Shown here: positions 1 through 16,565 of the stretch, piece after piece
Layout of the letters: each line of letters starts with the position of its first letter
How positions within the stretch are numbered: position 1 is the stretch's first letter
Assembly (NCBI GenBank): GCA_963827165.1
Contig: CAWGZR010000003.1
Span: 32,001-96,000 of the forward strand
DNA length: 64,000 nt
DNA from: Candidatus Bathyarchaeota archaeon
Lineage (GTDB): Archaea > Thermoproteota > Bathyarchaeia > Bathyarchaeales > Bathycorpusculaceae
Direction of reading: 5' to 3'
Program-made: the position numbers and the translations under genes
The notes under the pieces: model-generated
The model's database searches: none
The model's input: the letters and a program-made list of their open reading frames with translations, nothing else
Told to the model about the DNA's origin: nothing

Positions 1-176
1 TCATGGATAGCATGAAGATGCAGATTAAGAGCGTTGGCATCATTAAAGTCAATGCGGTTTTCTCAGCATCTCCAGGACAAAACAGCATGAAACTAGCTTA
101 GATGGGCATTATTGGAAACGTGCCATCAACCTTTTTCTTTTTTGACATTTTAAATAGAAAAAGATAGAAAAAGTGA

Positions 177-197
177 GTTCAAATCCCCTCAGGCCCG
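177..197 (+). other. tRNA 3'-end fragment (T-loop to discriminator), att-like scar, tRNA-Lys/Arg-like
   Basis: GTTCAAAT-CCCCT-CAGGCCC-G = T-loop, 3' T-stem strand, 3' acceptor strand, discriminator G; the upstream sequence is A-rich and cannot form the rest of a tRNA. Confidence 0.6.
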
Positions 198-425
198 TTA
201 TCGGTTTCCGCCCCTGTTTGGGGTTGGGCTTCGTTCCGCCATCTTTTGGTGTGGAACCCATAGAGACCCAAACTGCTTCAAGCTCGAATCCGATTAATTT
301 CGTTGAGGTCCTTCTTTCTTTTGCAGTCAGTCTTTATGTTTGCCAAGACAGATTGATTAAGGGCTTTGAAGAATTAGAAAAACAAGCTTTAAACAAAAGT
401 TGTACCAAAAGGGTAGGCGAGTGTT

Positions 426-1973
426 TTGGTTCCCAGCATAGAGCTCATTGTGGCAGCGTTCCTGCTTATAGCTTTCTTAGCCGCGGTCCTATCCACAAGG
501 CTCAAGATACCGTACACTCTTGTTTTGGTCTTAACAGGAGTTATAATCACCGTGGTCGCGTCCACGTTTACTATGCAGGGAGGTTCTTTCGAGACCCTGA
601 TTTCTCAATTGAGATCACTCTGCGCTCAACTTCTCCAAGGTGGCGGAGGTGGCCTTTTCGTGGGCGTAGTTGTTCCCCCATTGATATTCGAAGCCATGAT
701 TCACCTTCGCGCCAGTGATCTGCGGGCGGTAATCAAGCCTTCGTTAGCCTTAGCAACCGTTGGGGTCTTGATAGCGACTGGTGTCGGTGGGCTCATCTTG
801 TGGAAGATCGTTGGTCTTTCACCGTATGTTTCTTTTCTTTTCGCCGCGTTGATTGCGCCAACGGATACGGTTACGGTTTTGGAGGTTTTTCGACGGGTCA
901 AGGTTCCTTCCAAACTATCTACGCTGCTTGACACCGAAGCGGCCTTCAACGACGCCACCGGCATTGTTCTTTTCACAATAATCCTTTCAACTGTCGGGCT
1001 TCATGAGATCTCGGTAACGCAAACAGTGCTCAATTTCGGATTTACTCTTGGGGCAGGCGTCTTAATCGGGCTGGTAATCGCGTTTCTAGGCGAAGTACTT
1101 TCAAGCTTGATAGAAGATAGAGTGGCCGAAACCATCTTGGCGGTTGCAGTGGTGTACGGGTCGTACGCTTTGGCAACAGGAATAGGCGCCTCAGGGCTAA
1201 TAGCAGTCGCCGTGGCAGGGTTATACTTTGGCAACTTCACGATGCGATCAGCCATGGAACCAGCGTCAAAAGAAACTGTAACGACATTTTGGCAGATAGC
1301 AGCCTTCCTAGGCAACTCAATAGCGTTTCTAATTATTGGTTTCGAGACAAACATTATCACTCTTTCGCAATCAGTTCTACTTATTGCAGTCGCTTACGCC
1401 GCCGTAACCGTAGCTAGAGCGGCTACAGTGTACCCGATACTCGCCGTGTTCAACAAGTTCGGAGACAAAATATCCGCGGTTTGGCGCAACGTTGCCATGC
1501 TTGGAGGAGTCCGAGGCGCTTTGTCCATAGCGTTAGTAGCTACGATAACAACTTCCGCAGTAATTTCTAAAGGAGATATCAACACAATAGATACAATGGT
1601 GCTGGGAGTAGCCTTCATTTCAATCGTGTTTCAAGTGCCTTTGCTGTTTCGCTATGTAAGGAAAAAAATACCGCAAACCGAAGCCGTGGCAGAAACAGAA
1701 ATTGACGAACAATTCGAGTTAATAGCCTCACACATGGAAGAAGTAAGAAAACTAAAATCAGAAGGCAAAATATCCAATGCAGAATTCACAAAAAGAATTG
1801 AAGAAAACAAAAAGAAACTAGACCAGCTAATCGCAACCTCGCCCGTTACAATTGAAACAAGAAAAATTATACGCGCAAGAGCCTCCGCGTTATACAATTC
1901 TTTTCCAAAAATGCCCAAACACAAAATAAAAGACAAAAACAACGAACCAAAAAACAAAACCGAAAAAGAATAG
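426..1973 (+). CDS. CPA1/NhaP-family Na+(K+)/H+ antiporter
   Basis: About 12 hydrophobic segments; APTD, EAAFND and GVRGALS motifs; charged C-terminal tail. Confidence 0.9.
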   Translation: MVPSIELIVAAFLLIAFLAAVLSTRLKIPYTLVLVLTGVIITVVASTFTMQGGSFETLISQLRSLCAQLLQGGGGGLFVGVVVPPLIFEAMIHLRASDLRAVIKPSLALATVGVLIATGVGGLILWKIVGLSPYVSFLFAALIAPTDTVTVLEVFRRVKVPSKLSTLLDTEAAFNDATGIVLFTIILSTVGLHEISVTQTVLNFGFTLGAGVLIGLVIAFLGEVLSSLIEDRVAETILAVAVVYGSYALATGIGASGLIAVAVAGLYFGNFTMRSAMEPASKETVTTFWQIAAFLGNSIAFLIIGFETNIITLSQSVLLIAVAYAAVTVARAATVYPILAVFNKFGDKISAVWRNVAMLGGVRGALSIALVATITTSAVISKGDINTIDTMVLGVAFISIVFQVPLLFRYVRKKIPQTEAVAETEIDEQFELIASHMEEVRKLKSEGKISNAEFTKRIEENKKKLDQLIATSPVTIETRKIIRARASALYNSFPKMPKHKIKDKNNEPKNKTEKE

Positions 1974-2201
1974 TCGCACTATCCTTTTCAGCACAACAGA
2001 AGGTCTAATCAAAAAATCGAGCGCAATTTCAATACGAAAAAATCAATTATTCTCTTAGCTAATCAATACCTGAAACAATGTCTATAAATTTCTCTTCCCT
2101 CTCAAATAATTCGTTCGCTCTTGTCGACTGAGAACCGAGTCTACGCTCATCAAAGATAACCGATCGCTCCATTTATTATTTTTATTTACATATTTCCGTG
2201 C

Positions 2202-4067
2202 GTGCCGTTTATATCCGACTTCAATGTGCAAGGAATATTCGAGAAGGAAAAAAACGTGAAGTCACCCGGTGCTTCTCGCGAGTTTGGTTATCTTAGGAAA
2301 TGGGTTCCGATCGCTATTTTGATAGGGGTAGTCAGCGGGGTAGGCAGCATTGTTTTCTATGAAGCAATCAGACTTGCAAGCGCGGTCCTACTCGGGGGAG
2401 TAACTGGTTTTTTTGCACCTTCGCCACTCGGAGAAGGCGGAAGCTTAGGAGTAGTCGCTTCTCGTCTTTACTTGATTCCGTTGGTTACTGCTGTTGGAGG
2501 ACTTTGTTGTGGCATACTCGTCTATGGTTTGGCACCGGAAGCCGAGGGTCATGGAACTGACGCGGCAATAGATGCTTTTCACAATAAAAAGGGTGAAATT
2601 CGATCCAGAATACCTCTGGTTAAGGTTGTGGCCTCAGCAATAACGATTGGCTCTGGAGGAAGTGCAGGCAGGGAAGGTCCGACAGCGCAGATGGGGGCAG
2701 GCTTCGGCTCTTTCCTGGGCAGAAGATTTAATTTCAGTTTACATGACAGAAGAATTGCGGTTGCAGTTGGTATAGGTGCAGGAATTGGCTCCATTTTTAA
2801 GGCGCCGTTTGGAGGAGCCATAATGAGCGCTGAGATTCTTTACATGCAAGATTTTGAGGTGGAGACGTTGCTGCCCGCTTTCATAGCTTCGACCGTGGGC
2901 TACAGTATATTCGCGTCATATGCCGGATGGACGCCAATATTTGGCTACTTGAATCTAGGGGCTTTCAACAACCCAGTTGTTCTGCCTTTTTACGCTGTCT
3001 TGGGCATAATCTGCGGGTTAGTCGGCATTGTGTACGTCAAAGGGTTCTACGGCACGCGGGCTCTTTTTCAGCGTCTAAGAATACCGCGTTTCTTGAAGCC
3101 AGCTTTAGGCGGATTACTAGTGGGTATCATCGGAATGTTTCTCCCGCAAGTGCTCGGCATGGGCTATGGTTGGCTTCAGATATTGATGAGCGGCAACTTT
3201 CTCTTACTTCCTATAATTTTGATCCCAATAATCATCGTAGCCAAAATAGTTGCTACATCTCTTACGGTAGGTTCAGGAGGAAGCGGCGGAGTCTTCGCGC
3301 CAGCCTTGGTAATAGGCGGCTTTCTAGGTGCAGCACTCTGGATATTTCTAAACGGGCTTTTCCCGAATTCCGGGCTTGTCATCGCCGCATTTGTTATAGT
3401 GGGGATGATGGCGTTTTTTGGAGGCGTAGGCAAGGTTCCTGTTGCAGTCATAATCATGGTTAGCGAAATGACTGGAGGATTAACTCTGCTGGTTCCCTCA
3501 ATGATAGCAACTGCTATTGCCTATATAATCACCGGAAAGAATACTATCTATAGAAGCCAGGTTGAATCACGATCTGATTCTCCAGCCCACAGAAGTGAAT
3601 ACTCTACTCCTCTGCTGCAAAAGCTCTTTGTCAAAGACGCAATGACCAAAAAGGTCATCACAACTACCCTCAACTCACCGCTCTCAAAGGTCGCAGAGGT
3701 AATGGCAAAGAACACAATAAAAGGTAATCCAGTCTTGGATGATAATGGCAGGCTGGTAGGTATGGTCACACTTACGGATGTTCTAAAGATTAATCCAGAC
3801 CAGAGAGCTACTACAAAGGTAAGCTCCGTAATGACAAAAGAGTTGGTTACAACGATTCCCGATGAGAGTCTTTATGCTGCTTTTGGAAAGATGACAAGTA
3901 ACCAGATTGGACGCCTGCCCGTTGTTGAGCCAGGGGACAGCACAAAGCTGATAGGCATAATAACGCGAGAAGACGTCTGGCGAGTCTACAACATAGAGAT
4001 TATGTCAGAACTGGAAGAGACTAAACTTTCAGGAAGCGTCAAAGAGAATAGCGAAACAAAGTCTTGA
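2202..4067 (+). CDS. ClC-family Cl-/H+ antiporter with C-terminal CBS pair
   Basis: EAEGHGTD, GSAGREGP (gating Glu present), GGSGGVFAP, IYRSQ; two CBS domains; the start may be slightly downstream. Confidence 0.92.
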   Translation: MPFISDFNVQGIFEKEKNVKSPGASREFGYLRKWVPIAILIGVVSGVGSIVFYEAIRLASAVLLGGVTGFFAPSPLGEGGSLGVVASRLYLIPLVTAVGGLCCGILVYGLAPEAEGHGTDAAIDAFHNKKGEIRSRIPLVKVVASAITIGSGGSAGREGPTAQMGAGFGSFLGRRFNFSLHDRRIAVAVGIGAGIGSIFKAPFGGAIMSAEILYMQDFEVETLLPAFIASTVGYSIFASYAGWTPIFGYLNLGAFNNPVVLPFYAVLGIICGLVGIVYVKGFYGTRALFQRLRIPRFLKPALGGLLVGIIGMFLPQVLGMGYGWLQILMSGNFLLLPIILIPIIIVAKIVATSLTVGSGGSGGVFAPALVIGGFLGAALWIFLNGLFPNSGLVIAAFVIVGMMAFFGGVGKVPVAVIIMVSEMTGGLTLLVPSMIATAIAYIITGKNTIYRSQVESRSDSPAHRSEYSTPLLQKLFVKDAMTKKVITTTLNSPLSKVAEVMAKNTIKGNPVLDDNGRLVGMVTLTDVLKINPDQRATTKVSSVMTKELVTTIPDESLYAAFGKMTSNQIGRLPVVEPGDSTKLIGIITREDVWRVYNIEIMSELEETKLSGSVKENSETKS

Positions 4068-4129
4068 ACAGAAAAATGCACGATGTTATTGCCCAAAAAT
4101 TAGCAGCTGCTAGAAATGGTGTTAAACTC

Positions 4130-6694
4130 TTATTTTGCTCTTTCCATAGATGATAGGCGTTTAGCTCTCGTAATTTTTAGAGCTGGAAGATTTTTTGAAT
4201 TTTTGAAAAAGAATTGCTTAATAAGAGAAAATGCAGACGAATCAACATGAGGTTTTTGTCTGTTAGATAAGACTTCTTCGTGCCCCATTAATCTGAAGAA
4301 GTGAATCTTCAACTGATCCGTTATCAGGAAACTAAGCAATGCATAACTCCAGACGAAAGCGGCGAATCCCCACCCAATCGGATTCATAAACACACCGAAG
4401 ACAGCAAACAACGTACCAACAACTTGAGTTCCCTCTGTGGCTACAAAAAGAATACTAGCTGGAAGGGGACGTTTCCAGAAGTGGCGCACTCCAGTTCGCG
4501 CCAAATAAATAGTCAGGTGCCCAGCAACAGCCATTTTAAGAAAAATCAGCGTCTGCAACGTACCAACACTCAAGTGGAATACGTATAAGCCAATTATTAA
4601 GAGCCCAAAGCTTGAAACGACACCTGTTGTGCCAAGCAGAGAAGCAACTATCAGCACGCCACGCATGTTCCAGCGAACAGGTTTCTCTTGCACTCTCACA
4701 TTATCGTATGCAATGGTCATGATAGGTATGTCGTTGAGCAATGCCAAAATGACTATCATAACTGCCGTCACCGGATAGAAGTTAAAGAAAAGAATTGCAA
4801 GACTAATGAAAATCAGTACTCGAGAAGTCTCGGCGATGCGATAGACGGCGTAATTGGTCATGCGTTCAAAAATCTTACGGCTCTCTTTAATCGCGTCAAT
4901 GATAACCGAAAGCCCCGGCTTCGTTAGAACCACATCAGCTGCGGATTTAGCCGCGTCAGTTGCTCCATCAACTGCAACCCCCGCATCCGCTTTCTTTAAT
5001 GCTGGAGCATCGTTAACTCCGTCGCCTGTCATGCCGACAATATGCCCTTTTCCCTGAAGTAACTCAACTATGCGATATTTGTGCTCAGGAAAAACTTGGG
5101 CAAAACCATCCGCATTCTCAATAATGTCTTTTGCTTCGCTGTCTGGTTTGTCTATGAAATCGGAAGCGGGTATTATATTTGTGCCCAGATTAACTTCTTG
5201 AGCAATCTGCTTAGCTATTGCAATGTGGTCGCCAGTGACCATCTTGACGTTTATGCCCATCTGTTGGGCTGTTTTTATTGTCTGAGCAGAGTCTTCGCGG
5301 GGTGGGTCGTAAATTGCAAGCAGACCAACAAATTGCCAATTGCCTTTTTCGTCTCCCTTAATTACGCCTAGCGCTCGATGACCCTTGATTGCGAAAGTGT
5401 TTACAATTTCGTTAACTCTATCTTCGATTTCTGTCTTGTTGGAAACAAGAGACAAAACAATTTGCGGAGCACCCTTGGCCACTTTGAAGTGCCCGCCATC
5501 ACTGCTCTCTACAGTAGCTTCAGTTCTCTTCAAAATAGGGTCAAAGGGCTTAAAATCAACCACGCTGTATCGGCCAAGAACGTCAGCAACCGCTTTTATC
5601 GACTTGGCTTTGGTGATGACTGAATCGTCAATGGGATCACGGTTTTCTTCTCTAGAAGCTAAGGTTCCATACAGGAGGGCGTCGTTGATTTCGAATTTGC
5701 CTAAGGGTTGCGTTTCTGCAATGGTAAGTTCATTCTTCGTTATGGTGCCGGTTTTGTCTGAGCATAACACGTCAACTCCAGCCATTTCTTCAATTGAAAC
5801 CAGTTTGCTAACGATGGCTTCTTTTTTGGCGAGGACAATTGCTCCAACTGCCATGGTGACTGTCAAAACGGCAGGCAACGCTACAGGTATTGAAGCTACA
5901 ACCAAAACCAGTGCAAACTGCGTGATAACTAATGGGTTGACATGTCGAAAGAGCGATGCGATGACAACTGCGGAAACCATTATTGCCGCGAGGATGATCA
6001 GGTAGTTTCCTATTTTTATGACTGCTTTTTGGAAGTGGCTTGCGGTTCTGGCTTCTGACACGAGTTTGGCGGTTTTGCCAAAGAAGCTGCTTGTTCCTGT
6101 TGCTACGACGTAAGCGTCCATTTCGCCTTGTCTAATGATGGCTCCTGCGTATGCTACGTCAGATACATGTTTTTCTACCGGCAGGGATTCTCCAGTTAAT
6201 GCGGATTCGTCCGCGAGCAAGTAGTCGCCTTTTATAAGTTTAACGTCGGCAGGGACAATGTCACCTAAGCGGACACGTACGATGTCACCTGGGACAAGTT
6301 CCTTTGAGGGTATTTCATGCCATGTTCCGTCTCTTAGCACTCGGGCTTTTGGGGCAAGTCGCTTTTTCAATAATTCTATGGCGTTGTCGGCTTTCCGTTC
6401 TTGCCAAAATCCCACCACGGCGTTCACGATTAGTAACGTGAAAATTATTGCAAAATCGTCATAGTGCTGAATGATTATAGATAGTACTGAGGCAATTTCT
6501 ATCATCCAAGGAATGGGTCCCCAGAAATAGCCCAAAAACTTGCGAAAAGGATTAACTTTCTTTTCAGAAATTTCGTTAGGACCATTCTGTTGAAGCTTTT
6601 TCGCTGCCTCTTCTGAAGATAGCCCAGTCTTGGCGTATTCTGAAAATGGCTTCTCTACACCAGACTTCGTTGATGGCTGCTCAGATTCCACCAA
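4130..6694 (-). CDS. P-type (P3A) plasma-membrane proton-efflux ATPase
   Basis: LTGES, IPVALP, CSDKTGT, KGAP, MVTGD, VFPEHK, TGDGVNDAPALK, LLND, IAYD. Confidence 0.95.
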   Translation of the reverse strand: MVESEQPSTKSGVEKPFSEYAKTGLSSEEAAKKLQQNGPNEISEKKVNPFRKFLGYFWGPIPWMIEIASVLSIIIQHYDDFAIIFTLLIVNAVVGFWQERKADNAIELLKKRLAPKARVLRDGTWHEIPSKELVPGDIVRVRLGDIVPADVKLIKGDYLLADESALTGESLPVEKHVSDVAYAGAIIRQGEMDAYVVATGTSSFFGKTAKLVSEARTASHFQKAVIKIGNYLIILAAIMVSAVVIASLFRHVNPLVITQFALVLVVASIPVALPAVLTVTMAVGAIVLAKKEAIVSKLVSIEEMAGVDVLCSDKTGTITKNELTIAETQPLGKFEINDALLYGTLASREENRDPIDDSVITKAKSIKAVADVLGRYSVVDFKPFDPILKRTEATVESSDGGHFKVAKGAPQIVLSLVSNKTEIEDRVNEIVNTFAIKGHRALGVIKGDEKGNWQFVGLLAIYDPPREDSAQTIKTAQQMGINVKMVTGDHIAIAKQIAQEVNLGTNIIPASDFIDKPDSEAKDIIENADGFAQVFPEHKYRIVELLQGKGHIVGMTGDGVNDAPALKKADAGVAVDGATDAAKSAADVVLTKPGLSVIIDAIKESRKIFERMTNYAVYRIAETSRVLIFISLAILFFNFYPVTAVMIVILALLNDIPIMTIAYDNVRVQEKPVRWNMRGVLIVASLLGTTGVVSSFGLLIIGLYVFHLSVGTLQTLIFLKMAVAGHLTIYLARTGVRHFWKRPLPASILFVATEGTQVVGTLFAVFGVFMNPIGWGFAAFVWSYALLSFLITDQLKIHFFRLMGHEEVLSNRQKPHVDSSAFSLIKQFFFKNSKNLPALKITRAKRLSSMERAK

Positions 6695-6704
6695 TAAAAA
6701 ACCT

Positions 6705-8000
6705 CTATTTTTTAGACCTGTATCTCAAAAGAGCAGCAAAGCCTCCCAAAGCTACAAGTTTTGCTTTTTCTTCTGACTCTGTAGATATGACTTCAACCCT
6801 TGCGTCTGTCTGTGAAGCCAAATCCTCTAAGACATCAACTATGTCCTTCTCCTCCACCTCGTATTCTGCCGAGTTGCACTTCGCGCATGGGCTCGATATC
6901 ATTTCTTGCAAAGCTTGACTCTTATTGTTCTTATTTACTATGTTCGCTTTTGATAGTTCGCATTTTTTGCACATTACAATAATTTCAATCATATCAGTGC
7001 TATCCGTCACCAATACAACATCAACTTCGCCATTCTTTAGTGCATTCAACACTGGATCTAATCCGTAAATAGCCAAGTCATCTTGTTTGCCAATGGCTGC
7101 TAGAAGACGCTGCACGATCATCTTTTCATCTGGAGCACACATATTCTTCAGTGTCTCAGCTGACTTGTCAAGCACCTCTCTTACCGCTTCTTTGCCGGCG
7201 GATTGAGTATCCACAGTGCCCAGAATCGAATTCTTTAGTTCATAATTGAGGTAATCACCCTTCAAGAAATCCTCTTTAGTTTGTCCTGGACCTCCAACTA
7301 TCAGCGCCGTAACTTTGTGGTTCTCGAGAAATGCCTTTGCTGCATGTTCAGCGATCCTGTGGAAAAAGTAGTTAACATCCATGTCGCGTTCTCTTTCGTA
7401 TCTTCTCTGACTTGATCCACCCTTTCCAGATTTTCCTGGAACCCCAGAAGTGATATTTTCAAGTAATTCAAAACGTTCACCATTTAGTAGCCCAAAACTT
7501 GCCTCCTTAGAATCAACGGCCATTAGCCCAACAACATGTTGGTTTCTCAGCATATCCCTTAGAGGATCTAAATGGAAATGGTTGTCAACCTCGTAGAGAT
7601 AAGCAGTAATCGGCTCTGGTGGAATAATCTCTTCAACGTTCACACCTTCCCTTTCAAGATTGTTCGCAACAAAAGTTCCAGCAAATAATGCAAGCCCATT
7701 CTCGGGAATTTCCTTCTCCAACTTTATTCGCTGGATTACGTTTTTGAGGGCGTCTTGAAGGCGATCCCTGACGTCTCTTCCGCTCTCTGATTTTGTACCT
7801 TCTGAATCAGATTCACACTTGAGGTTTGCGACTATCTCATCTATTGATTTCACCTTCGGTATGTACAGCGAGATGAACTCCCTTCCCTTCCCCTCTTTGT
7901 CTGATAGGTACGCTATGAGTTTCCTTAGTTTGTGCTGTTTCACAGAGTTGGTTGTTGCTATCTGGCATCCATGAAAATGTGTAACTTTTTCAGAAACCAA
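6705..8000 (-). CDS. aRF1/eRF1-family paralog with degenerate catalytic and decoding motifs and a Zn-ribbon
   Basis: ISLYIP, PENGLALFAG, VPGK-x-x-KGG(S)SQRRY, IVGGPG, YG..V..AL..G.V, CxxC..CxxC, LGGFAALLRY; GGQ reads GGS and NIKS reads GTKS. Confidence 0.9.
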   Translation of the reverse strand: MVSEKVTHFHGCQIATTNSVKQHKLRKLIAYLSDKEGKGREFISLYIPKVKSIDEIVANLKCESDSEGTKSESGRDVRDRLQDALKNVIQRIKLEKEIPENGLALFAGTFVANNLEREGVNVEEIIPPEPITAYLYEVDNHFHLDPLRDMLRNQHVVGLMAVDSKEASFGLLNGERFELLENITSGVPGKSGKGGSSQRRYERERDMDVNYFFHRIAEHAAKAFLENHKVTALIVGGPGQTKEDFLKGDYLNYELKNSILGTVDTQSAGKEAVREVLDKSAETLKNMCAPDEKMIVQRLLAAIGKQDDLAIYGLDPVLNALKNGEVDVVLVTDSTDMIEIIVMCKKCELSKANIVNKNNKSQALQEMISSPCAKCNSAEYEVEEKDIVDVLEDLASQTDARVEVISTESEEKAKLVALGGFAALLRYRSKK

Positions 8001-8190
8001 ATTTGAGACACCTTAAACATTCAGTTACAGTTGAGCCTAATTTATCAGTTTTCCAAAATTACAGCAAATCGACTCCTTTCTCAAAGTTATTTTTGCATTA
8101 CCTTATTTCAAAACGCAAGAGTGCGGACGCAAACGAAGAGTCTAAACCCTTACTTTTTGTGGGAATGACTATTTTCTTCGATAGTTGGTG

Positions 8191-8363
8191 TGCTCTTGAT
8201 TTTTGAAGATTGCTTTCAATAGCGAATAACTCAAACTTTTTTAATATCAGAATGACTTTCCCTTACAGAGGGAGCGCTTTTGCTTTTTGGACACAAGAAT
8301 AAACCCAAAATGGAACTCAAAGTAGATTTAAACGATTTGCAAAGCGAAAAAGGTCTTGGTTAA
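8191..8363. pseudogene. Diverged copy of the 41410-41573 divergent promoter with 5' stubs of both flanking genes
   Basis: Plus-strand stub LLFGHKNKPKMELKVDLNDLQSEKGLG* (8280-8363) matches the N-terminus of 41502..41846; minus-strand stub has AIFKNQE like 41157..41456. Confidence 0.85.
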
Positions 8364-8395
8364 GTCCACTGCATTTTTAAGAGAAAAAAACGGTA

Positions 8396-8800
8396 TTGTT
8401 ATGCATGCAGACAGGCTATATTTTTCTTTGTGATAATGCTTCGATTACCAAGTGTATTAGCAACAAAAGTTTTAGTTGCGCAGGTAAACCAGTTAAAGTG
8501 CCCCAAGAATTAGAATTAAACACAGTTATTTTCTTGCTCAATCATGAAACAAAAACTCTTCTAGGTCCATTCACCGATGTTCAAGGCCCTGAAGATTTGG
8601 AGAAGGGAACCTGGTATAGTAGCGTGGATGAGCATAGTTTTTCCGAAAACATTAATGTCGAGTGGGAAAGACTACATGAACTTAAAAACGCAACCGACAA
8701 AGTACCATTCTTGAAAGAGATAAAAGAATGTGCCCTATCCGATCTACAAACTCAGGAGCTACTCTCAACATTGAAGAACGCTCCTTTATACGTTGAATAG
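8396..8800 (+). CDS. DCD (development and cell death)-like / PUA-EVE-fold domain protein
   Basis: GYIFLCDN..I..C, IFLLNHETKTLLGPF and LSDLQTQELL resemble the DCD pattern G.IF.CN..T..EC / LFLF.Y....L.G.F / LS..Q...L; likely ATG start at 8405. Confidence 0.55.
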   Translation: MLCMQTGYIFLCDNASITKCISNKSFSCAGKPVKVPQELELNTVIFLLNHETKTLLGPFTDVQGPEDLEKGTWYSSVDEHSFSENINVEWERLHELKNATDKVPFLKEIKECALSDLQTQELLSTLKNAPLYVE

Positions 8801-9067
8801 ACATTCGAGTAAGAAAAAACAATCTCAACAATCACAAAAAGTATACTTCACTCTGTGAAAGACGAATACCAAGAGCACTAGTTTGAAACGAAAATCTTCT
8901 GCTGAAGCTAACAGTTTTTGAAGATACGAATTTGGAGAACTAAGCCAAGCAGCAACACTTTCGAGTAATTGAAAACTTTTTCAAGATTGAGCAGTAAGTT
9001 AAAATCAGCGATTGATTCATAATACTTGTTAGTGTGTTTTGATTAATGTTTTTGGGTTGGTGTTTGT

Positions 9068-9568
9068 ATGTCGTCAGAATTGAAGGTTATGTTGAGTAAG
9101 GTAGCTGTAGAAGATAACGTGCGCAAAGAATTAGAGTTTGAGGAAGGGATAAATCGTTACAAATCTCTTCTGCTCAGGGTAGCAAAAGTTCAGCCATTTG
9201 ACGTACTGGTTTCGTCTGAAGGAACTGAACAGGGCAAGTTACACCAAAATGTGGTAGATTTGAACGTGCTTGAAAGAGCCCACTTAGTGAAAGGACATAC
9301 AAAAGAGACGGATCATAACGTGTACCGTGAATACGAGCTTACTACGGAAGGAGCTGAATTAGTGGAAAAGCTCTCAAAAGAAGCCATGAGCGGCAAAGAT
9401 CTTCATCAGCCCCACACGTTGGGCGCGCCGTCATCTCAAGAGATACCAGCAGGAGGGGTAGAACCAAACCAGATTCCTTGTCCAGAATGCGGAAAAACCT
9501 TCAAGACCAACTCAGAGATGGAGAGACACAGAGATACAACACATCACGAAACAAAAGGGCACGAGTAA
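9068..9568 (+). CDS. Winged-helix-like protein with C-terminal C2H2 zinc finger
   Basis: LERAHLV...YELTTEG wing motif; CPECGKTFKTNSEMERHRDTTH. Confidence 0.65.
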   Translation: MSSELKVMLSKVAVEDNVRKELEFEEGINRYKSLLLRVAKVQPFDVLVSSEGTEQGKLHQNVVDLNVLERAHLVKGHTKETDHNVYREYELTTEGAELVEKLSKEAMSGKDLHQPHTLGAPSSQEIPAGGVEPNQIPCPECGKTFKTNSEMERHRDTTHHETKGHE

Positions 9569-9571
9569 GAA

Positions 9572-9901
9572 ATGAGCAGATTGACGATATCTATTCCTGC
9601 TAAGCGGGAACAATACCTAAAACAGTTAGCTAACGATCACCAAGTTGACCTGAATAGCGTTTTCAGTGAATTGTGTGATTGGGCTTTTTCTAATCCTGAA
9701 GGCAAAAAACAGTTTAAACTCTGGTTAGATGATGCTTTTCCTCCAAAAGGCGAAGCTGAAGACAAAGCACGGGATGCAGGCGCCAGAGAAAGAGCCCGTG
9801 AAGAAGATGCAGAAGATAAGTCTGAAGAAGAAGCTCATGAAGACGAAAACTACAACGAGGACATCGCCGGAGAGGACGTCAACGGGAAATTTAATCCCTA
9901 A
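9572..9901 (+). CDS. Ribbon-helix-helix-like protein with acidic tail
   Basis: RLTISIP...YLKQLA....DLNSVFSEL pattern; E/D-rich C-terminus; starts 3 nt after the previous stop. Confidence 0.5.
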   Translation: MSRLTISIPAKREQYLKQLANDHQVDLNSVFSELCDWAFSNPEGKKQFKLWLDDAFPPKGEAEDKARDAGARERAREEDAEDKSEEEAHEDENYNEDIAGEDVNGKFNP

Positions 9902-10026
9902 ATTGGGCGATCAAAGTTTTCTAACCACCTGAGTCTTGTAGCAACGGTGACTCTGCTGTTGTCCGGCTACAGCCACAAATGTTTAAGAAAGCTGGAACTC
10001 TCTTTTAGAGTAGAGACTTCAAATAA

Positions 10027-10758
10027 GTGGGCATCATGTTACACAAAATCAAAACACTAAAAGGCTACAGATTGGACAGCCTTGATGGGGAAATAGGCAG
10101 AGTCAAGGAATTCTATTTCGATGACACGTACTGGACAATTCGCTATTTGGTTGCCGACTCAGGAAATTGGCTTTCGGACAGGCTGGTGCTGATTTCCCCG
10201 CATGCGTTGCTTGCAGTGAATAAAGAAGAGCAAAACATCGCCATTAATTTAACGAAAAAACAAATCGAGGACAGTCCACCATTGAAAAGCGACAAGCCCG
10301 TCTCCCAACAATACGAGAACGCATACTATATTTATTATGGCTGGCCGACGTATTGGATGGGACCATACCCGTGGGGACCTTATCCCTACATCGTGCATAA
10401 TCGCGGTGTCTTTTCTCGGGAGGATGCTGAGAAAAAAAAGTGGGATCCCCATTTGCGCAGCACTAACGTTGTGAGTGGTTATCATATCCAAGCCTCCAAC
10501 GGCGAGATTGGTAACGTTGAAGATTTTATTGTTGAGGACGAGACGTGGGCGATTCGTTATCTTATCATCAATACACGGAACTGGTGGCCGGGAAAAGAGG
10601 TACTGGTTTCGCCGAAATTGATCGAGCAAGTTAGTTGGGATGAGCCGAAGGTCTTTGTTAATCTTACCCGCGAGGCCATCATGCAGTCACCCGAATACAC
10701 TGAGTCTCTGCTAGTAGAGGTAAAATCTGATATTCCTGTACTACACTCTGGACTATGA
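10027..10758 (+). CDS. Tandem PRC-barrel domain protein
   Basis: Two repeats of GEIG.V.(E/D)F..(D/E)D..W.IRYL....GNW....VL.SP; W/P/Y-rich linker; DPHLRS. Confidence 0.85.
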   Translation: MGIMLHKIKTLKGYRLDSLDGEIGRVKEFYFDDTYWTIRYLVADSGNWLSDRLVLISPHALLAVNKEEQNIAINLTKKQIEDSPPLKSDKPVSQQYENAYYIYYGWPTYWMGPYPWGPYPYIVHNRGVFSREDAEKKKWDPHLRSTNVVSGYHIQASNGEIGNVEDFIVEDETWAIRYLIINTRNWWPGKEVLVSPKLIEQVSWDEPKVFVNLTREAIMQSPEYTESLLVEVKSDIPVLHSGL

Positions 10759-10933
10759 GCTGCGATTACCTCAACATTACAATCATCACTATGATACAGG
10801 TGCTATAAACTTGTGTAAGTTAGTTTCATAGTATAATCTATTGGCGTGAGTGCCCTTGGGTGGAATCGTCTTTGAGAGGCACCTAAAAGTTGTTGCCTCA
10901 AACGGAGACGAGGAAATGAAATGCCCATTCAGC

Positions 10934-13747
10934 TCAAGACTTGGCCTGCCTTGCAGGGGGCGCTTGCGCCTCTTTTTCCTTTGAACTGGCGATCTTGTGC
11001 AACTGCTCGACGCGCTTATTGATCATCGAGCTCACTTTATTCCTTAGTTTATCGGGAGAGATGTTCTTGTCGCGCAATGCGGTGACCTGACTTGCCAGCG
11101 ATTTGTCTCCCAGCATCGTGAACCAGTTTTCAAAGTCTCCCTCTTCAACGTGAAACTTGACTGAAGATGGCTCGATAGTCTTCACGCTGGCGGCAAGTTC
11201 ATCCAAGCTTTTTGAGGTGACACCGAGAGGTTGCCCGTAATCCCTGTAGAAAGTGAAGGCATCGTCGGGCGTTACCGTTCTGAGCACGTTGGTTGCCTCG
11301 TTTCTTCCAATTTTCCTGCCCTCGCGATTCAGAACTTTGTATAGGCGCACTTTTGCCAAATCAGTCATAAAGAAAAATGCAAACGCGTAACCCCACACAA
11401 AAGCGGCCAGTCCCCAACCCAGCGCAGGAAGCAAAATCCCGTACACCGTAAGTATTATAGCGGTAACTTGAACAGCTATGCATGCAATAAGAAGCTGCTT
11501 AGCAGGCTTCACAGACCAAAAATGACCCTTAGTCCTCGCGACAAACACAGTCATATTTCCCGCCACTGCAAGCTTCAAGTATATGAAAGATTGAAGCACC
11601 AGTAGGTTTAGCTTCAGCACATCTAATCCGATGTAGAGAATTCCGAAAGTTGAGAATACCCCGATTACTCCAAGAAACGTCGCTACACTTAACAGATTTC
11701 GCATATCCCATTTCTCAGGTTTATCCGAGTACTTCACGTTATCATAAGCTATAGTCATAATCGGCAGGTCGTTTAGAAGAGCCAACAAAACAAGCATCAG
11801 AGCAGTGATTGGGAAAAACTTGAAAACCAGGATAGAAGCAGTCATGAAAAGCAGAATTCGTATCGTTTCAGCGATGCGGTACGTGCAATAATTCGTCATA
11901 CGCTGGAAAATCTTGCGACTCTCCTTAATCGCATCAATAATAACTGAAAGACCAGGTTTAGTCAGAACTATTGCTGCTGCCGATTTTGCAGCGTCGGTGG
12001 CGCCTTCAACAGCAATGCCGGCGTTAGCTTTCTTCAAAGCAGGCGCATCATTAACCCCATCGCCTGTCATTCCCACTATGTGTCCTTTTTCTTGAAGAAG
12101 CTCCACAATTTTGTACTTATGTTCAGGGAAGACTTCTGCAAAACCTTCCGCCGCTTCAACCACGCCTTGAGCTTCACTGTCAGACTTATCCAAAAAAGCG
12201 GCTGGCAACACAATATTGTTACCAAGGTTTACTTGACTCGAAATTTCTTTGGCAATAGCAATGTGGTCCCCAGTGACCATTTTCACGTTAACGCCCATCG
12301 ATTGAGCCGTCTTTATTGTCTGAGCAGAATCTTCCCGTGGCGGATCAAATAAACCAATTAAACCCGCAAATTGCCACTTATTCTCCTTATCAGTTCGAGC
12401 AACAGCCAACGCGCGATACCCTTTCTTAGCGAATTCATTAACATCCTCGGTCAATTTGTCGTTAATTGATTTCTTGTCCTCTATCAATGCCAGAATCGCT
12501 TGAGGCGCCCCTTTGGTAACTTTAAATTGGCTTCCATCCTCTCCTTGCACGGTTGCCTCTGTTCTCTTTATGACAGGATCAAAGGGCTTAAAACCAGTCA
12601 CTTTAATGTGCTCAATTTTAACAGCAATATCGGGTGTACTCTTGGTTTTAGTTAAAATTGCAAGGTCAATTGGATCTTTATCTTCTTCTCTTGAAGCGAG
12701 CGCACTGAAAAGTAGTACGTCGTTTTCTGTGAATTTGGCATAAGGTTTGGTTCCACCCATAGTGAGCGCGTTTTTAGTGATAGTACCTGTTTTGTCTGAG
12801 CACAGCACATCCATGCTTGCCATTTCCTCAATCGCAACCAACTTGCTCACTATCGCTTCCTTCTTAGCGAGAGCTATTGCGCCTACGGCCATCGTAACTG
12901 AGAGAACCGCGGGAAGTGCCGCAGGTATCCCCGCAACAACTAAGATCAATGCAAACTGAATGATGCCTAAGATGTTTTGACCTCGAAAAATCGAGACTAC
13001 AACGATTATTGCTACTAGTCCTATCGCTAGGAAAATCAGGTAATCGCCTATTCTGCTAATGGCTTTTTGGAAGTGGCTTGGAGTTTTGGCTATTTCTACG
13101 AGTTTGGCGGTTTTACCGAAAAAAGTTTTGGCGGCGGTGTTAACAACGAGCGCGTTCATTTCGCCCTGTTTTACAATGGAGCTTGCGTATCCAATGTCAG
13201 AGAGATGTTTCTCTACAGGAAGAGATTCGCCAGTTAATGCAGATTCATCAGTTAAAAGGTAGTCTCCCTCAATTAGTTTCACGTCGGCGGGAATGATGTC
13301 TCCTAAACGCACTCGAACAACATCGCCTGGCACCAGTTTTTCCGCCGGTGTTTCCTGCCATTTTCCGTCTCGCAGAACTCGTGCTTTTAGGGCTAGTCTT
13401 TTCTTTAGCTGTTCTATGGCGTCTCCTGCTTTGCGTTCCTGCAAGGATCCGACTGTGGCGTTTACCAGTAATAGAGCTAAAATTATTGCAAAATCAGCCC
13501 AGCTGTGGATGACTGCAGACATTACTACTGCTGCTTCTATCATCCATGGAATTGGACCCCAAAAATAGCGAAGAAACTTTAGAAGCGGGTTAACTTTTTT
13601 CTCCTGAATCTCATTAGGACCATATTGCACAAGTCGTTTTTCAGCTTCTGAGGAAGAAAGACCCCCCTTGCCCGCCGAAAGCTTACTTAATAGTTCATCA
13701 ACATTGGCTTTCTTTGCCTCTTCTGTAGTTAAGGAGTCTTGACTCAT
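10934..13747 (-). CDS. P-type (P3A) proton-efflux ATPase with C-terminal DUF5752-like domain
   Basis: LTGES, IPAALP, CSDKTGT, TGDGVNDAPALK, LLND; extra ~100-aa tail LRTV...AFTFY..YG....SLDEL....SVKFH...GDFENW. Confidence 0.93.
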   Translation of the reverse strand: MSQDSLTTEEAKKANVDELLSKLSAGKGGLSSSEAEKRLVQYGPNEIQEKKVNPLLKFLRYFWGPIPWMIEAAVVMSAVIHSWADFAIILALLLVNATVGSLQERKAGDAIEQLKKRLALKARVLRDGKWQETPAEKLVPGDVVRVRLGDIIPADVKLIEGDYLLTDESALTGESLPVEKHLSDIGYASSIVKQGEMNALVVNTAAKTFFGKTAKLVEIAKTPSHFQKAISRIGDYLIFLAIGLVAIIVVVSIFRGQNILGIIQFALILVVAGIPAALPAVLSVTMAVGAIALAKKEAIVSKLVAIEEMASMDVLCSDKTGTITKNALTMGGTKPYAKFTENDVLLFSALASREEDKDPIDLAILTKTKSTPDIAVKIEHIKVTGFKPFDPVIKRTEATVQGEDGSQFKVTKGAPQAILALIEDKKSINDKLTEDVNEFAKKGYRALAVARTDKENKWQFAGLIGLFDPPREDSAQTIKTAQSMGVNVKMVTGDHIAIAKEISSQVNLGNNIVLPAAFLDKSDSEAQGVVEAAEGFAEVFPEHKYKIVELLQEKGHIVGMTGDGVNDAPALKKANAGIAVEGATDAAKSAAAIVLTKPGLSVIIDAIKESRKIFQRMTNYCTYRIAETIRILLFMTASILVFKFFPITALMLVLLALLNDLPIMTIAYDNVKYSDKPEKWDMRNLLSVATFLGVIGVFSTFGILYIGLDVLKLNLLVLQSFIYLKLAVAGNMTVFVARTKGHFWSVKPAKQLLIACIAVQVTAIILTVYGILLPALGWGLAAFVWGYAFAFFFMTDLAKVRLYKVLNREGRKIGRNEATNVLRTVTPDDAFTFYRDYGQPLGVTSKSLDELAASVKTIEPSSVKFHVEEGDFENWFTMLGDKSLASQVTALRDKNISPDKLRNKVSSMINKRVEQLHKIASSKEKEAQAPPARQAKS

Positions 13748-15066
13748 TCATTGACGCTCTTTATCAGTTTTGTCATTTCCTTCTTGAGCTCGTCAAGTCT
13801 TTTTTGGTCTCGTGCCTCTATCGATAAGCGGAGTATTGGTGATGTATTTGATGCTCTGATCAGAGCCCACGAATCTGGAAAAACAATTTTGACGCCGTCG
13901 ATGGTGTCTGTGTTTTTATATGTTTTCAATGCCTTTTCTTTTATCTTATTGATGACTTGAAACTTCGTTTCGTCAGAGCACTTTATTTCGATTCTTTCGA
14001 AAAGTCTTGAGGGCAGCTCTTTCACGGCTTCTGACAGCTTCTGCCCCATCTTAGAGACTATTTCTGCCATGTACATACTATTTATTATTGCATCGTCGAA
14101 CCAGAAGAACTTTGGAACACATATGTGCCCAGATTCTTCAACACCAATAACCGCGTTATGTTTCTTGGTTTCCTGCACCAAAAACGTGTGCCCAACTGGT
14201 ACTCGAAACACTTTTTCCCCATATTTCTTAACCTCGTCCTCTATAATGTCTGAGCATTCTATGTTGGCGACGACAGGGCCTCTCTGAGTTTTCATTATGT
14301 CCCTGATGAAGAGGATTGCACTTTGCTCGGTCGCGATGACTTTGCCTGTGTCATCAACGAAAATGGCTCTGTCGCCATCGCCATCAAACGCTATTCCAAG
14401 ATCTGCCTTCTCGGTCACAACCTTCTTGCAGAGAGCGGTCAAGGCTTCAGGTTTCGGTTCGGGGTCTCTGTTCGAGAACTTCGGGTCGGGCCAATCAAAA
14501 AGGAAAGTGGCTTTGACACCGATTTTCTTGAGTATCTTCGGTACCAGTAAGCATGCGGCTCCGTTTCCGAAGTCAGCGACCACGCCTATTTTCTCTGGTT
14601 TTATTTTTTCAGCCACGAAATTAGCGTATGCTGCGTCCATCCCCTCGAGCGGTTTTGCTGTTCCTGTGCCTGTTTTGAATTTTTCTGAGGCGCTTATTTC
14701 TCCCAGTTTTTTGTTTTCGTCTTCGAAGAAGCCGACTCCGTCTTGATGGAAGAATTTGACGCCGTTCCACTCCGCCGGGAGATGGGAAGCGGTTATGTAG
14801 GCGGTTGCGTTGTTTTTCATTTTCCAGTTTGCAAAGACGCAGAGACTCGCAGGGCAGGTTCCGATCAGATTTGCGTTTGACCCGGTTTTTTTTAATCCTG
14901 TAACGAACGCTTCTTCAAGTTGGGCTCCGTGTTCTCTGAAGTCTCTTCCAATGGTGAAGGTGCCGGGGCACAAAGTTCCGGCTGCCTGACCTATTCGGGT
15001 CATAATCTCTTCCGTCAAGTCTTTACCGTAAATTCCTCGTATGTCGTAAGCTCTAAAAATACTCAT
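13744..15066 (-). CDS. Phosphoglucomutase/phosphomannomutase
   Basis: IFRAYDIRG, TASHLP (phospho-Ser), FDGDGDR, EESGH, IRASNT; 4-nt ATGA overlap with the ATPase start. Confidence 0.92.
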   Translation of the reverse strand: MSIFRAYDIRGIYGKDLTEEIMTRIGQAAGTLCPGTFTIGRDFREHGAQLEEAFVTGLKKTGSNANLIGTCPASLCVFANWKMKNNATAYITASHLPAEWNGVKFFHQDGVGFFEDENKKLGEISASEKFKTGTGTAKPLEGMDAAYANFVAEKIKPEKIGVVADFGNGAACLLVPKILKKIGVKATFLFDWPDPKFSNRDPEPKPEALTALCKKVVTEKADLGIAFDGDGDRAIFVDDTGKVIATEQSAILFIRDIMKTQRGPVVANIECSDIIEDEVKKYGEKVFRVPVGHTFLVQETKKHNAVIGVEESGHICVPKFFWFDDAIINSMYMAEIVSKMGQKLSEAVKELPSRLFERIEIKCSDETKFQVINKIKEKALKTYKNTDTIDGVKIVFPDSWALIRASNTSPILRLSIEARDQKRLDELKKEMTKLIKSVNE

Positions 15067-15161
15067 TTTCTGTCACACCCTTTTCTTTGGTTCAAATTGC
15101 TGAAGCCGCTTTTCGGGTTCTGAAAAAGTGAGACTAAGCGGATTCGCGCGCGCTATTCCAT

Positions 15162-15315
15162 AAACAGGATCCTTAACAGACATAAAAACAAAAGCCTCGC
15201 TGTGATAAAGTGCCACCTTCACCAATAATTAGCTTTCGTTCAGACAAAAAACGCCTTTTAAAACGATTTATTGTTTGAGTTCAGCTGAGAACACCGTGTG
15301 AAACAAGTCTTCTGC
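15162..15315. pseudogene. Diverged copy of the 40601-40760 convergent gene-end junction
   Basis: Plus strand NRILNRHKNK vs NRIFNSRHKNK; minus strand HTVFSAELKQ* vs HTVYSSELKQ*; collinear nucleotide similarity. Confidence 0.75.
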
Positions 15316-15545
15316 GCGCGCGGCCATGCTTACAACTTCCGAGCCACTCTACATAGAGGATAGTTAAACTCTGCTTATAAAATAATTCATAGTACTAAAA
15401 AATAAAAATGACCTCTTCGGCCTAATCAAAAACAGACGGAAAAAGAGATTGTGATTCAATCTTGATGACGCAAGCGGTATGTTAAAAAATTGGCGCACCC
15501 TTAAGTGTAATTCAGAGATGAACTTTTGGAGAATGGTGAGTTTAA

Positions 15546-16565
<1,020 letters not shown>

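Follow-up and report, generated by a model that had tools for sequence, protein, structure and literature searches.

Gene content of the locus

The DNA analysed here is a 64,000-nucleotide stretch from a Candidatus Bathyarchaeota archaeon of the family Bathycorpusculaceae (assembly GCA_963827165.1, contig CAWGZR010000003.1, positions 32,001 to 96,000; hereafter the window, with position 1 at its first letter), and the gene in question encodes a paralog of aRF1, the archaeal release factor, in which the motifs of stop-codon decoding are altered and the glutamine of the catalytic GGQ motif is replaced by serine. The gene lies on the minus strand in a neighbourhood of ion and proton transporters (Table 1). 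A first-pass annotation, made from the sequence alone, had described an intact three-domain aRF1 with four changed motifs, and translation and profile searches bear this out, with motif coordinates that agree with the ones given there: eRF1 domains 1, 2 and 3 are all matched by Pfam, giving the architecture N, M and C, and the NCBIfam model TIGR03676 (aRF1_eRF1) is matched at 377.7 bits against a cut-off of 234.7.

Table 1 Features of the aRF1 paralog gene and its surroundings in the window; motif coordinates are derived from the paralog translation.
Feature	Position	Strand	Remarks
aRF1 paralog coding sequence	6705–8000	−	431 aa; TTG start, TAG stop at 6705–6707; intact open reading frame
Domain-N helical hairpin tip	7773–7811	−	ESDSEG-TKSES + GRD for EYGTASNIKS
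GTKS, G68-T69-K70-S71	7788–7799		Within hairpin tip
Extra residues G74-R75-D76	7773–7781		Within hairpin tip
GRE replacing GTx loop, G39-R40-E41	7878–7886	−	Canonical-invariant Thr replaced
YEVDNHF (Y136 to F142) replacing YxCxxxF	7575–7595	−	Cys to Val
GGSSQ catalytic-loop motif	7407–7421	−	S196 at old Gln position
GGS, G194-G195-S196	7413–7421		Within GGSSQ
N-terminal extension, residues 1–17 (SEKVTHFHGCQ...)	7950–8000	−	Absent from canonical aRF1
AAGGTG Shine-Dalgarno-like hexamer	8009–8014	−	8 nt 5' of TTG start; read from sequence
10-nt spacer AGGTTTTTTA	6695–6704	−	Between paralog stop and ATPase start
Plasma-membrane proton-efflux P-type ATPase	4130–6694	−	854 aa; TTG start at 6694; TIGR01647 1029 bits, cut-off 615.5
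Na+/H+ exchanger	426–1973	+	
ClC channel with CBS domains	2202–4067	+	
DCD (development and cell death) domain protein	8396–8800	+	134 aa; divergent, upstream of paralog
Protein ending in C2H2 zinc finger	9068–9568	+	166 aa; between paralog and second ATPase
PRC-barrel protein	10027–10758	+	243 aa; between paralog and second ATPase
Second plasma-membrane-type H+-ATPase	10934–13747	−	

The source assembly (3.13 Mb in 14 contigs, 94.5% complete) holds four genes of the aeRF1 superfamily: this paralog, a second paralog copy (69% identical, reading GGSSQ and without NIKS), a canonical aRF1 on another contig (422 aa, 38% identical to the paralog, with TASNIKS, YRCDSRF and GGQSARR intact) and a Pelota of 363 aa. 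The window gene is thus a paralog, as the first-pass annotation had supposed, and not the sole aRF1 of its genome.

State of the signature motifs among relatives

Motif states were counted across 120 listed database relatives at 74–100% identity to the paralog, as returned by a protein search, and were read against the canonical aRF1 of the same genome, which has EYGTASNIKS, YRCDSRF, GGQSARR and SHTE at the corresponding sites. NIKS at the hairpin tip and the Cys of YxC each occur in 0 of the 120 relatives, the latter position being Val in 119 and Ala in one, and the position of the GTx Thr reads M in 86, R in 11, I in 7 and K in 6 of them, among other residues. When the paralog is aligned with its genome's canonical aRF1, the NIKS Asn is lost through a one-residue deletion and the Lys is kept, the pairing of residues in this loop being alignment-dependent (one MAFFT run shifts the loop by one residue). 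At the positions equivalent to Glu55, Lys63, Tyr125 and Phe131, most relatives keep the residue (E in 113, K in 116, Y in 118 and F in 120 of 120). Since the altered decoding motifs are common to all 120 relatives, they cannot reflect chance decay of a single sequence; judged by these motifs, stop-codon decoding appears to be erased in the paralog family, not retuned.

Residues G194, G195, S197 and Q198 of the catalytic loop are each present in 120 of 120 relatives, and the old Gln position between them, residue 196, reads S in 60, Q in 46, E in 7, M in 3, W in 3 and A in one. Ser196 is encoded by codons of both the TCN and the AGT type, and the position matching Q198 is Ala in the canonical aRF1 of the genus. 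Conservation of the altered motifs, which the first-pass annotation had proposed to check among homologues, is therefore complete for the loss of NIKS and of the YxC Cys and does not extend to GGS, which is not fixed.

Product and predicted structure

An AlphaFold2 model of the paralog, built from an 84-row alignment, has a mean predicted local distance difference test (pLDDT) score of 81.9, with residues 1–16 alone predicted to be disordered (pLDDT <50), and its top Foldseek match is the archaeal aRF1 4AF1 (E 1.2e-39, TM 0.68/0.71), with eRF1 chains next. Further elements of the release-factor body are present: the basic helix RRYERxRD, the C-terminal GGxAAxLRY and a Zn-ribbon insertion (CxxC...CxxC) in domain C, all four Cys of which are invariant. 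The paralog still holds 68 of 157 canonical-invariant positions, and the net charge of domain N has moved from basic to acidic (−3.7 in paralogs versus +3.4 in canonical aRF1).

The start codon falls in the same column in nearly all of the 58 aligned homologues derived from the loci compared here, being mostly TTG, in some ATG and in one GTG, with CTG in that column in homologues L021 and L022, and Shine-Dalgarno-like codons (AAGGTG) recur upstream in most of the 58. Because both the start column and the upstream AAGGTG are kept across homologues, the 17-residue N-terminal extension is taken as real; its amino acids are conserved in the homologue alignment, with a ratio of nonsynonymous to synonymous substitution rates (dN/dS) of 0.40.

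Distribution of the paralog family

Paralog-level matches (53–100% identity) were found in 18 of 25 genomes of the genus and canonical aRF1 in 24 of the 25 (36–40% identity to the paralog query), and no paralog was found in 16 genomes from other families of the order. Across 401 Bathyarchaeia genomes the paralog was present in 31, of which 22 belong to its own genus and 7 to three sister genera, all within one family, and 2 to a neighbouring family, and all remaining listed matches were at or below 43% identity. A scan of named genomes yielded 46 paralog loci, nearly all in metagenome-assembled genomes from peat, palsa and soil. Broken copies occur as well: a second paralog copy in one genome (L081, G009:C280:1244-2495) is a pseudogene, its hairpin region being interrupted by an in-frame TAG and its domain C by a frameshift, and one copy in G404 carries an internal TAA. 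Since copies are lost or broken in some genomes, the family is accessory, and we describe it as an accessory, lineage-restricted family of aRF1 paralogs of peat and soil Bathyarchaeia.

Named relatives, mostly Candidatus Bathyarchaeia metagenome-assembled genomes, are annotated as 'peptide chain release factor aRF-1', a database name that is probably wrong as a functional statement for the paralog family. The records of some paralog-bearing contigs and proteins name Acidoferrum, Limnocylindrales, Zixibacteria, Betaproteobacteria, Conexivisphaerales or Nitrososphaerales as the source (L049, L056, L068, L070, L072; P0095, P0100), probably through errors of binning or labelling.

Selection on the paralogs

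Pairwise dN/dS was estimated by the Nei–Gojobori method over a dS range of 0.1–1.0 for paralogs and 0.1–1.3 for canonical aRF1 (0.05–1.2 in earlier estimates). The canonical set comprised 20 sequences, with the G015 gene left out; paralog open reading frames shorter than 380 aa (fragments and pseudogenes) were excluded from the rooted tree and from the first dN/dS alignments, and identical nucleotide sequences were merged, reducing 58 to 50, for parsimony and regional dN/dS. Overall dN/dS was 0.21 in paralogs (423 pairs) versus 0.057 in canonical aRF1 of the same genus (23 pairs). The first-pass annotation had named random motif decay, with dN/dS near 1, as an outcome that would undo a functional reading; the observed value of about 0.2 instead indicates purifying selection on the paralog as a whole.

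Regional constraint is distributed differently in the two groups. The hairpin tip is the least constrained region of the paralogs (dN/dS 0.42), with indels of 0–3 residues and several of the sites that change most often in the protein, whereas the canonical NIKS tip is the most constrained region of its protein (0.009). The most constrained region of the paralogs is the GG loop (0.089, versus 0.027 for the canonical GGQ loop), which shows no length variation. Parsimony on a tree of the 50 unique sequences gave no changes at K193, G194, G195, S197, Q198 or R199 and seven at position 196, near the protein average of 7.2. Selection is thus relaxed on the old NIKS tip; as dN/dS at the tip stays below 1, relaxation describes it better than clear positive selection.

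Age, origin and exchange between genomes

In a tree with canonical sequences as the root, all paralogs group in a single clade that spans several genera and is set off by a very long stem. The clade has support of 1.0 and is sister to the NIKS- and GGQ-bearing representatives P0124 and P0143, not to the genus's own aRF1 (FastTree, 67 sequences); given the long stem, the paralog may have arisen by duplication or by horizontal acquisition. GGQ is retained in basal paralogs, and the split of the genome's two paralog copies is younger than the family. The proposal that the paralog is recently derived therefore fails for the family, which has a long stem, several genera and basal members with GGQ.

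For several genome pairs, paralog dS is about half of canonical dS (G000 versus G019, 0.61 versus 1.38), and a sliding-window comparison shows the window allele to be a mosaic of alleles from other genomes. Low paralog dS and the mosaic allele together suggest recombination or transfer among members of the genus, and both would fit an accessory, exchangeable gene. The window's GGS allele is nested within a GGQ subclade of the rooted tree; because the allele is a mosaic, we caution against reading this nesting as a simple reversal. Gene conversion from the genome's own second copy was considered and rejected, nucleotide identity between the two being 61–77% throughout the sliding window.

Outside the paralog family, the Gln of GGQ is replaced by W, F, E or S in other aRF1-like representatives, the majority with a NIKS-type motif (P0142, P0179, P0265, P0211, P0155, P0218, P0146, P0150, P0167, P0169, P0183, P0214, P0225 and P0263), so that, to judge from these sequences, Gln-less aRF1 homologues may be more widespread than the papers cited here state. 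Some of them are intein-bearing, with W or F preceding the intein Cys. Many aRF1 representatives of 500–1450 aa (for example, P0121, P0123 and P0129) match the query in two stretches, with a break at about residue 196 and a Cys right after GGQ, a pattern that looks like intein insertion at the catalytic motif.

Genomic context and transcripts

The transporter genes of the window (426–13747) form an ion- and pH-homeostasis cluster that resembles an acid-tolerance locus of a peat archaeon. Between the paralog stop and the start of the proton-efflux ATPase, the spacer AGGTTTTTTA together with the last G of the stop codon gives GAGGT, a Shine-Dalgarno-like sequence for the ATPase gene. The same spacer contains a run of six T residues (T6), which is what an archaeal terminator looks like.

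Gene neighbourhoods were compared over 47 paralog loci (the 46 loci and the window), which are related by descent so that counts are not independent. Eight of the 47 contain a P-type ATPase homologue, in at least five different arrangements, and an Na+/H+ exchanger lies near the paralog in 5; the link to a stress island put forward in the first-pass annotation thus stands in a loose form, with proton and cation transporter genes recurring near family members. Four of the 47 loci contain a homologue of the DCD protein, which in the window and in L051 sits immediately upstream of the paralog. A search of positions 1–16000 of the window against Rfam gave no match at or above a family's gathering score, and none of five window proteins searched with PADLOC gave a match.

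RNA data came from one metatranscriptome run in which 0.06 of the sampled words were present, with contigs kept at ≥90% likeness. Seven short contigs were obtained, from relatives at 90–97% identity. One of 254 nt, 97% identical, spans 6615–6868 and so covers the junction of paralog and ATPase, and another of 351 nt spans 7242–7592 with the GGS codons unchanged. The junction contig is at most a hint of co-transcription, since contigs of an RNA library may derive from DNA and a bridging contig is not equivalent to a single transcript.

Interpretation and alternative explanations

We give about an even chance to the reading that the paralog works in the A site independently of stop codons, still reaching the peptidyl-transferase centre with its loop, and is probably non- or weakly hydrolytic in this copy. 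Because the body, Zn ribbon, C-terminal motif, GG loop and basic helix are kept, the paralog should still go where aRF1 goes, and because intact, selected genes carry W, M, E, A, S or Q at position 196, hydrolysis via that side chain is unlikely to be the conserved activity. In the proposed mechanism, aEF1A would deliver the paralog, as for aRF1 and Pelota, and binding would be independent of the codon in the A site. The aRF1 body would enter the A site and the conserved GG loop would be placed in the peptidyl-transferase centre, with hydrolysis through residue 196 not being the selected activity in GGS, GGE, GGM, GGW and GGA copies. Occupation of both sites on stalled or idle ribosomes might then park them, protect them or help to split them, an action functionally like that of Dom34 or Balon and unlike that of a release factor. 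The position before a proton pump, in a cluster of an Na+/H+ exchanger, a ClC channel and two H+-ATPases, suggests use under acid or ion stress. We infer the hibernation or rescue role, and ribosome binding and activity are candidate properties.

Several points weigh against this reading. Ribosome binding, aEF1A binding and activity are all predictions, and GGQ is kept in basal members and in 46 of the 120 relatives, so that the ancestral paralog may still have been able to hydrolyse and members of the family may differ in function. Neither the two glycines nor the loop length varies at all. Such a loop is typical of catalytically active families, inactive ones showing loop decay, in the account that Burroughs and Aravind give of these loops (PMC6514570), and the invariant Q198 yields GGxSQ, the named catalytic motif of aVLRF-1 and acVLRF-1. 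The operon with the H+-ATPase that the first-pass annotation proposed is upheld in its 10-nt spacing, but a same-strand ATPase directly downstream, at an offset of 11 bases, is limited to the window and its closest, 93%-identical relative, and the T6 run of the spacer could terminate transcription before the ATPase gene. Another subclade, which includes the genome's second copy, occupies a conserved housekeeping locus (HisRS-methyltransferase-EndA-paralog-IF2B/MtnA). The link between paralog and transporters is thus recurrent but loose, and the loci behind the counts share descent. Small residues at the Gln position, moreover, keep partial release activity in bacterial release factors and in eRF1.

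The main rival reading, which we think rather doubtful, is that the paralog is still a peptidyl-tRNA hydrolase, acting as a stop-codon-independent release or rescue factor in the manner of ArfB/ICT1 or Vms1/VLRF1, with the catalytic Gln moved by two residues (GGQSA to GGxSQ) or with Ser196 sufficient, either of which would make the old Gln position dispensable. It would account for the invariance of Q198 (120 of 120, against Ala in the genus's canonical aRF1), for the basal GGQSQ paralogs that have both glutamines, so that a second Gln is present wherever the first was lost, for the fixed length and strong constraint of the GG loop (dN/dS 0.089) and for the retention of Ser196 through TCN and AGT codons, and it has a precedent in aVLRF-1 and acVLRF-1, for which the corresponding part of PMC6514570 gives GGxSQ as catalytic and notes that active families keep a fixed loop length. 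However, 11 aRF1 representatives that bear NIKS and are presumably ordinary have GGQSQ too, so that Gln at +2 is neither a paralog innovation nor a residue with a shown catalytic role. The paralog likewise has no special similarity to VLRF1 (acVLRF1 score of 40.8 bits versus 44.3 for canonical aRF1, and 35.2 against a cut-off of 125 on the NCBIfam model), and Trp, Met or Glu at 196 would be expected to upset a pocket two residues away, yet genes with these residues are intact and selected. A role away from the A site seems unlikely, whether titration of aEF1A or ABCE1, regulation of the adjacent pump's translation, or a part in conflict or defence; variable genomic context, mosaic alleles, paralog dS below canonical dS in some genome pairs, the fast-evolving hairpin tip and the divergent DCD-domain gene upstream would agree with it, but the five window proteins searched gave no PADLOC match, the tip has a dN/dS below 1, and conservation of the GG loop and basic helix speaks for a protein that engages the peptidyl-transferase centre.

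Two further explanations carry little weight. That the paralog is a release factor of changed codon specificity, reading a subset of stops or another codon, as was once proposed for the second aRF1 of pyrrolysine users, is very improbable: the full three-domain architecture, the mostly kept equivalents of Glu55, Lys63, Tyr125 and Phe131 (E 113, K 116, Y 118 and F 120 of 120) and the GGQ of some relatives would be consistent with it, but the codon-reading hairpin tip is acidic and the least constrained region (dN/dS 0.42, with indels of 0–3 residues), this copy lacks the Gln, the canonical aRF1 is present, and neither PylS nor PylB exceeds its cut-off in the 94.5%-complete genome. That the paralog is a duplicate in decay or without function, a reading already disfavoured, is scarcely credible, since the open reading frame is maintained in 58 locus-derived homologues and 120 listed proteins, start codon and Shine-Dalgarno-like sequence are conserved, 68 of 157 canonical-invariant positions are kept, and dN/dS stands at 0.21 for the whole gene and at 0.089 for the GG loop; its accessory status (no match in 7 of the genus's 25 genomes), the broken copies in G009:C280 (TAG and frameshift) and G404 (TAA) and a dN/dS about four times that of canonical aRF1 are what such a duplicate would also show.

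Within the reading of a stop-codon-independent A-site factor, we tentatively raise a more specific possibility, which we regard as the less probable outcome: an archaeal counterpart of Balon that evolved independently, as a release-factor duplicate midway to a plug that fills the A site and peptidyl-transferase centre without hydrolysis, with decoding lost, Gln dispensable and co-expression with proton pumps, and that would park or protect the ribosomes of peat Bathyarchaeia in acid or ion stress. If this is true, the other aRF1 homologues that have W, F, E or S in place of the Gln of GGQ would mark a wider, unrecognised class of archaeal A-site factors. In the usual view, a single aRF1 and a single Pelota serve archaea for termination and rescue, and the second aRF1 of Methanosarcina has been without known function since 2009. 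Against this background the family supplies a concrete candidate for a factor of ribosome hibernation or rescue that archaea derived from aRF1, and it may serve as a natural experiment in which decoding is erased, the catalytic Gln toggles and the loop that reaches the peptidyl-transferase centre is frozen; its natural variants at the Gln position (Q, S, E, M, W and A) offer material for testing roles of the GGQ loop beyond hydrolysis.

Comparison with known systems

A literature search found no description of the paralog family, and the list of archaeal genomes with two aRF1 copies in PMC12626013 may include these Bathyarchaeia. With canonical archaeal aRF1 (TIGR03676; PDB 4AF1, 3AGK) the paralog shares the three-domain fold, Zn ribbon, GG dipeptide, basic helix and C-terminal motif. 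It differs in lacking NIKS, the Cys of YxCxxxF, the Thr of GTx and, in this copy, the Gln of GGQ, in its acidic domain N and 17-residue N-terminal extension, and in being an accessory protein that evolves about four times faster and coexists with a real aRF1; NIKS, YxCxxxF and GGQ are given as universal in a/eRF1 where Atkinson et al. (2008) treat these motifs. Like the aRF1-2 of Methanosarcina, the paralog is an additional aRF1 homologue in a genome with an active aRF1. The Methanosarcina protein is inactive for release in vitro and its function is unexplained in the accounts of it in PMC2933860, PMC2943090 and PMC12626013, the last (PNAS, 2025) giving two aRF1 copies in 4.3% of sampled archaeal genomes in its survey; it differs in lineage and in its pyrrolysine link, the comparison being one of descriptions and not of sequence or motifs. 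A pyrrolysine link for the paralog was rejected, since PylS_Cterm and PylB models gave only sub-threshold matches in the source genome.

The GGSSQ of the paralog fits the GGxSQ of aVLRF-1 and acVLRF-1, Vms1-like release factors for which it is the named catalytic motif in the section of PMC6514570 devoted to them and whose proposed action is codon-independent. This likeness is at the level of the motif: by the same section, aVLRF-1 has an N-terminal coiled coil and no C-terminal Pelota-type domain and acVLRF-1 has no domain N, whereas the paralog has all three classical domains and lies below the acVLRF1 cut-off (NF041024, 35.2 bits versus 125). Membership of VLRF-1 was rejected on this result and on a Pfam acVLRF1 score (40.8 bits) that is not above that of canonical aRF1 (44.3).

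Pelota/Dom34 resembles the paralog in superfamily and in having neither stop decoding nor a catalytic Gln, and it acts on stalled ribosomes. It differs in its Sm-like N domain and its truncated, poorly conserved loop, as characterised in parts of PMC2613156 and PMC6514570; the N domain of the paralog is of eRF1 type (eRF1_1) and its loop is full-length and invariant. The paralog scores below the Pelota cut-off (TIGR00111, 73 bits versus 177.65, with domains M and C only), Pelota chains are at E 1e-19 or weaker in the Foldseek search of its model, and the source genome already has a separate Pelota.

Balon shares with the paralog an aeRF1 fold without NIKS and GGQ, multiple copies and proximity to stress genes, and its proposed delivery by a GTPase of the EF-Tu/EF1A type is the model for what we propose here. 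The preprint that describes Balon (bioRxiv 10.1101/2022.11.24.517861) reports neither NIKS nor GGQ in it, delivery by EF-Tu, frequent occurrence in several copies and a place in stress operons, including those of acid stress. Balon is bacterial, and its defining features there are an HP motif, a lasso loop and a bL27 trap; the paralog is set apart from it by model score (36.6 bits versus a cut-off of 320 on the Balon/Rv2629 model NF052289) and by fold ranking, with Balon chains at rank 20 and lower (E 1e-19 versus 1e-39 for aRF1 and eRF1), and its family keeps the GG loop intact. Gln-less bacterial families of the aeRF1 superfamily are predicted, in the discussion of them by Burroughs and Aravind (PMC6514570), to be non-catalytic A-site blockers linked to hibernation factors.

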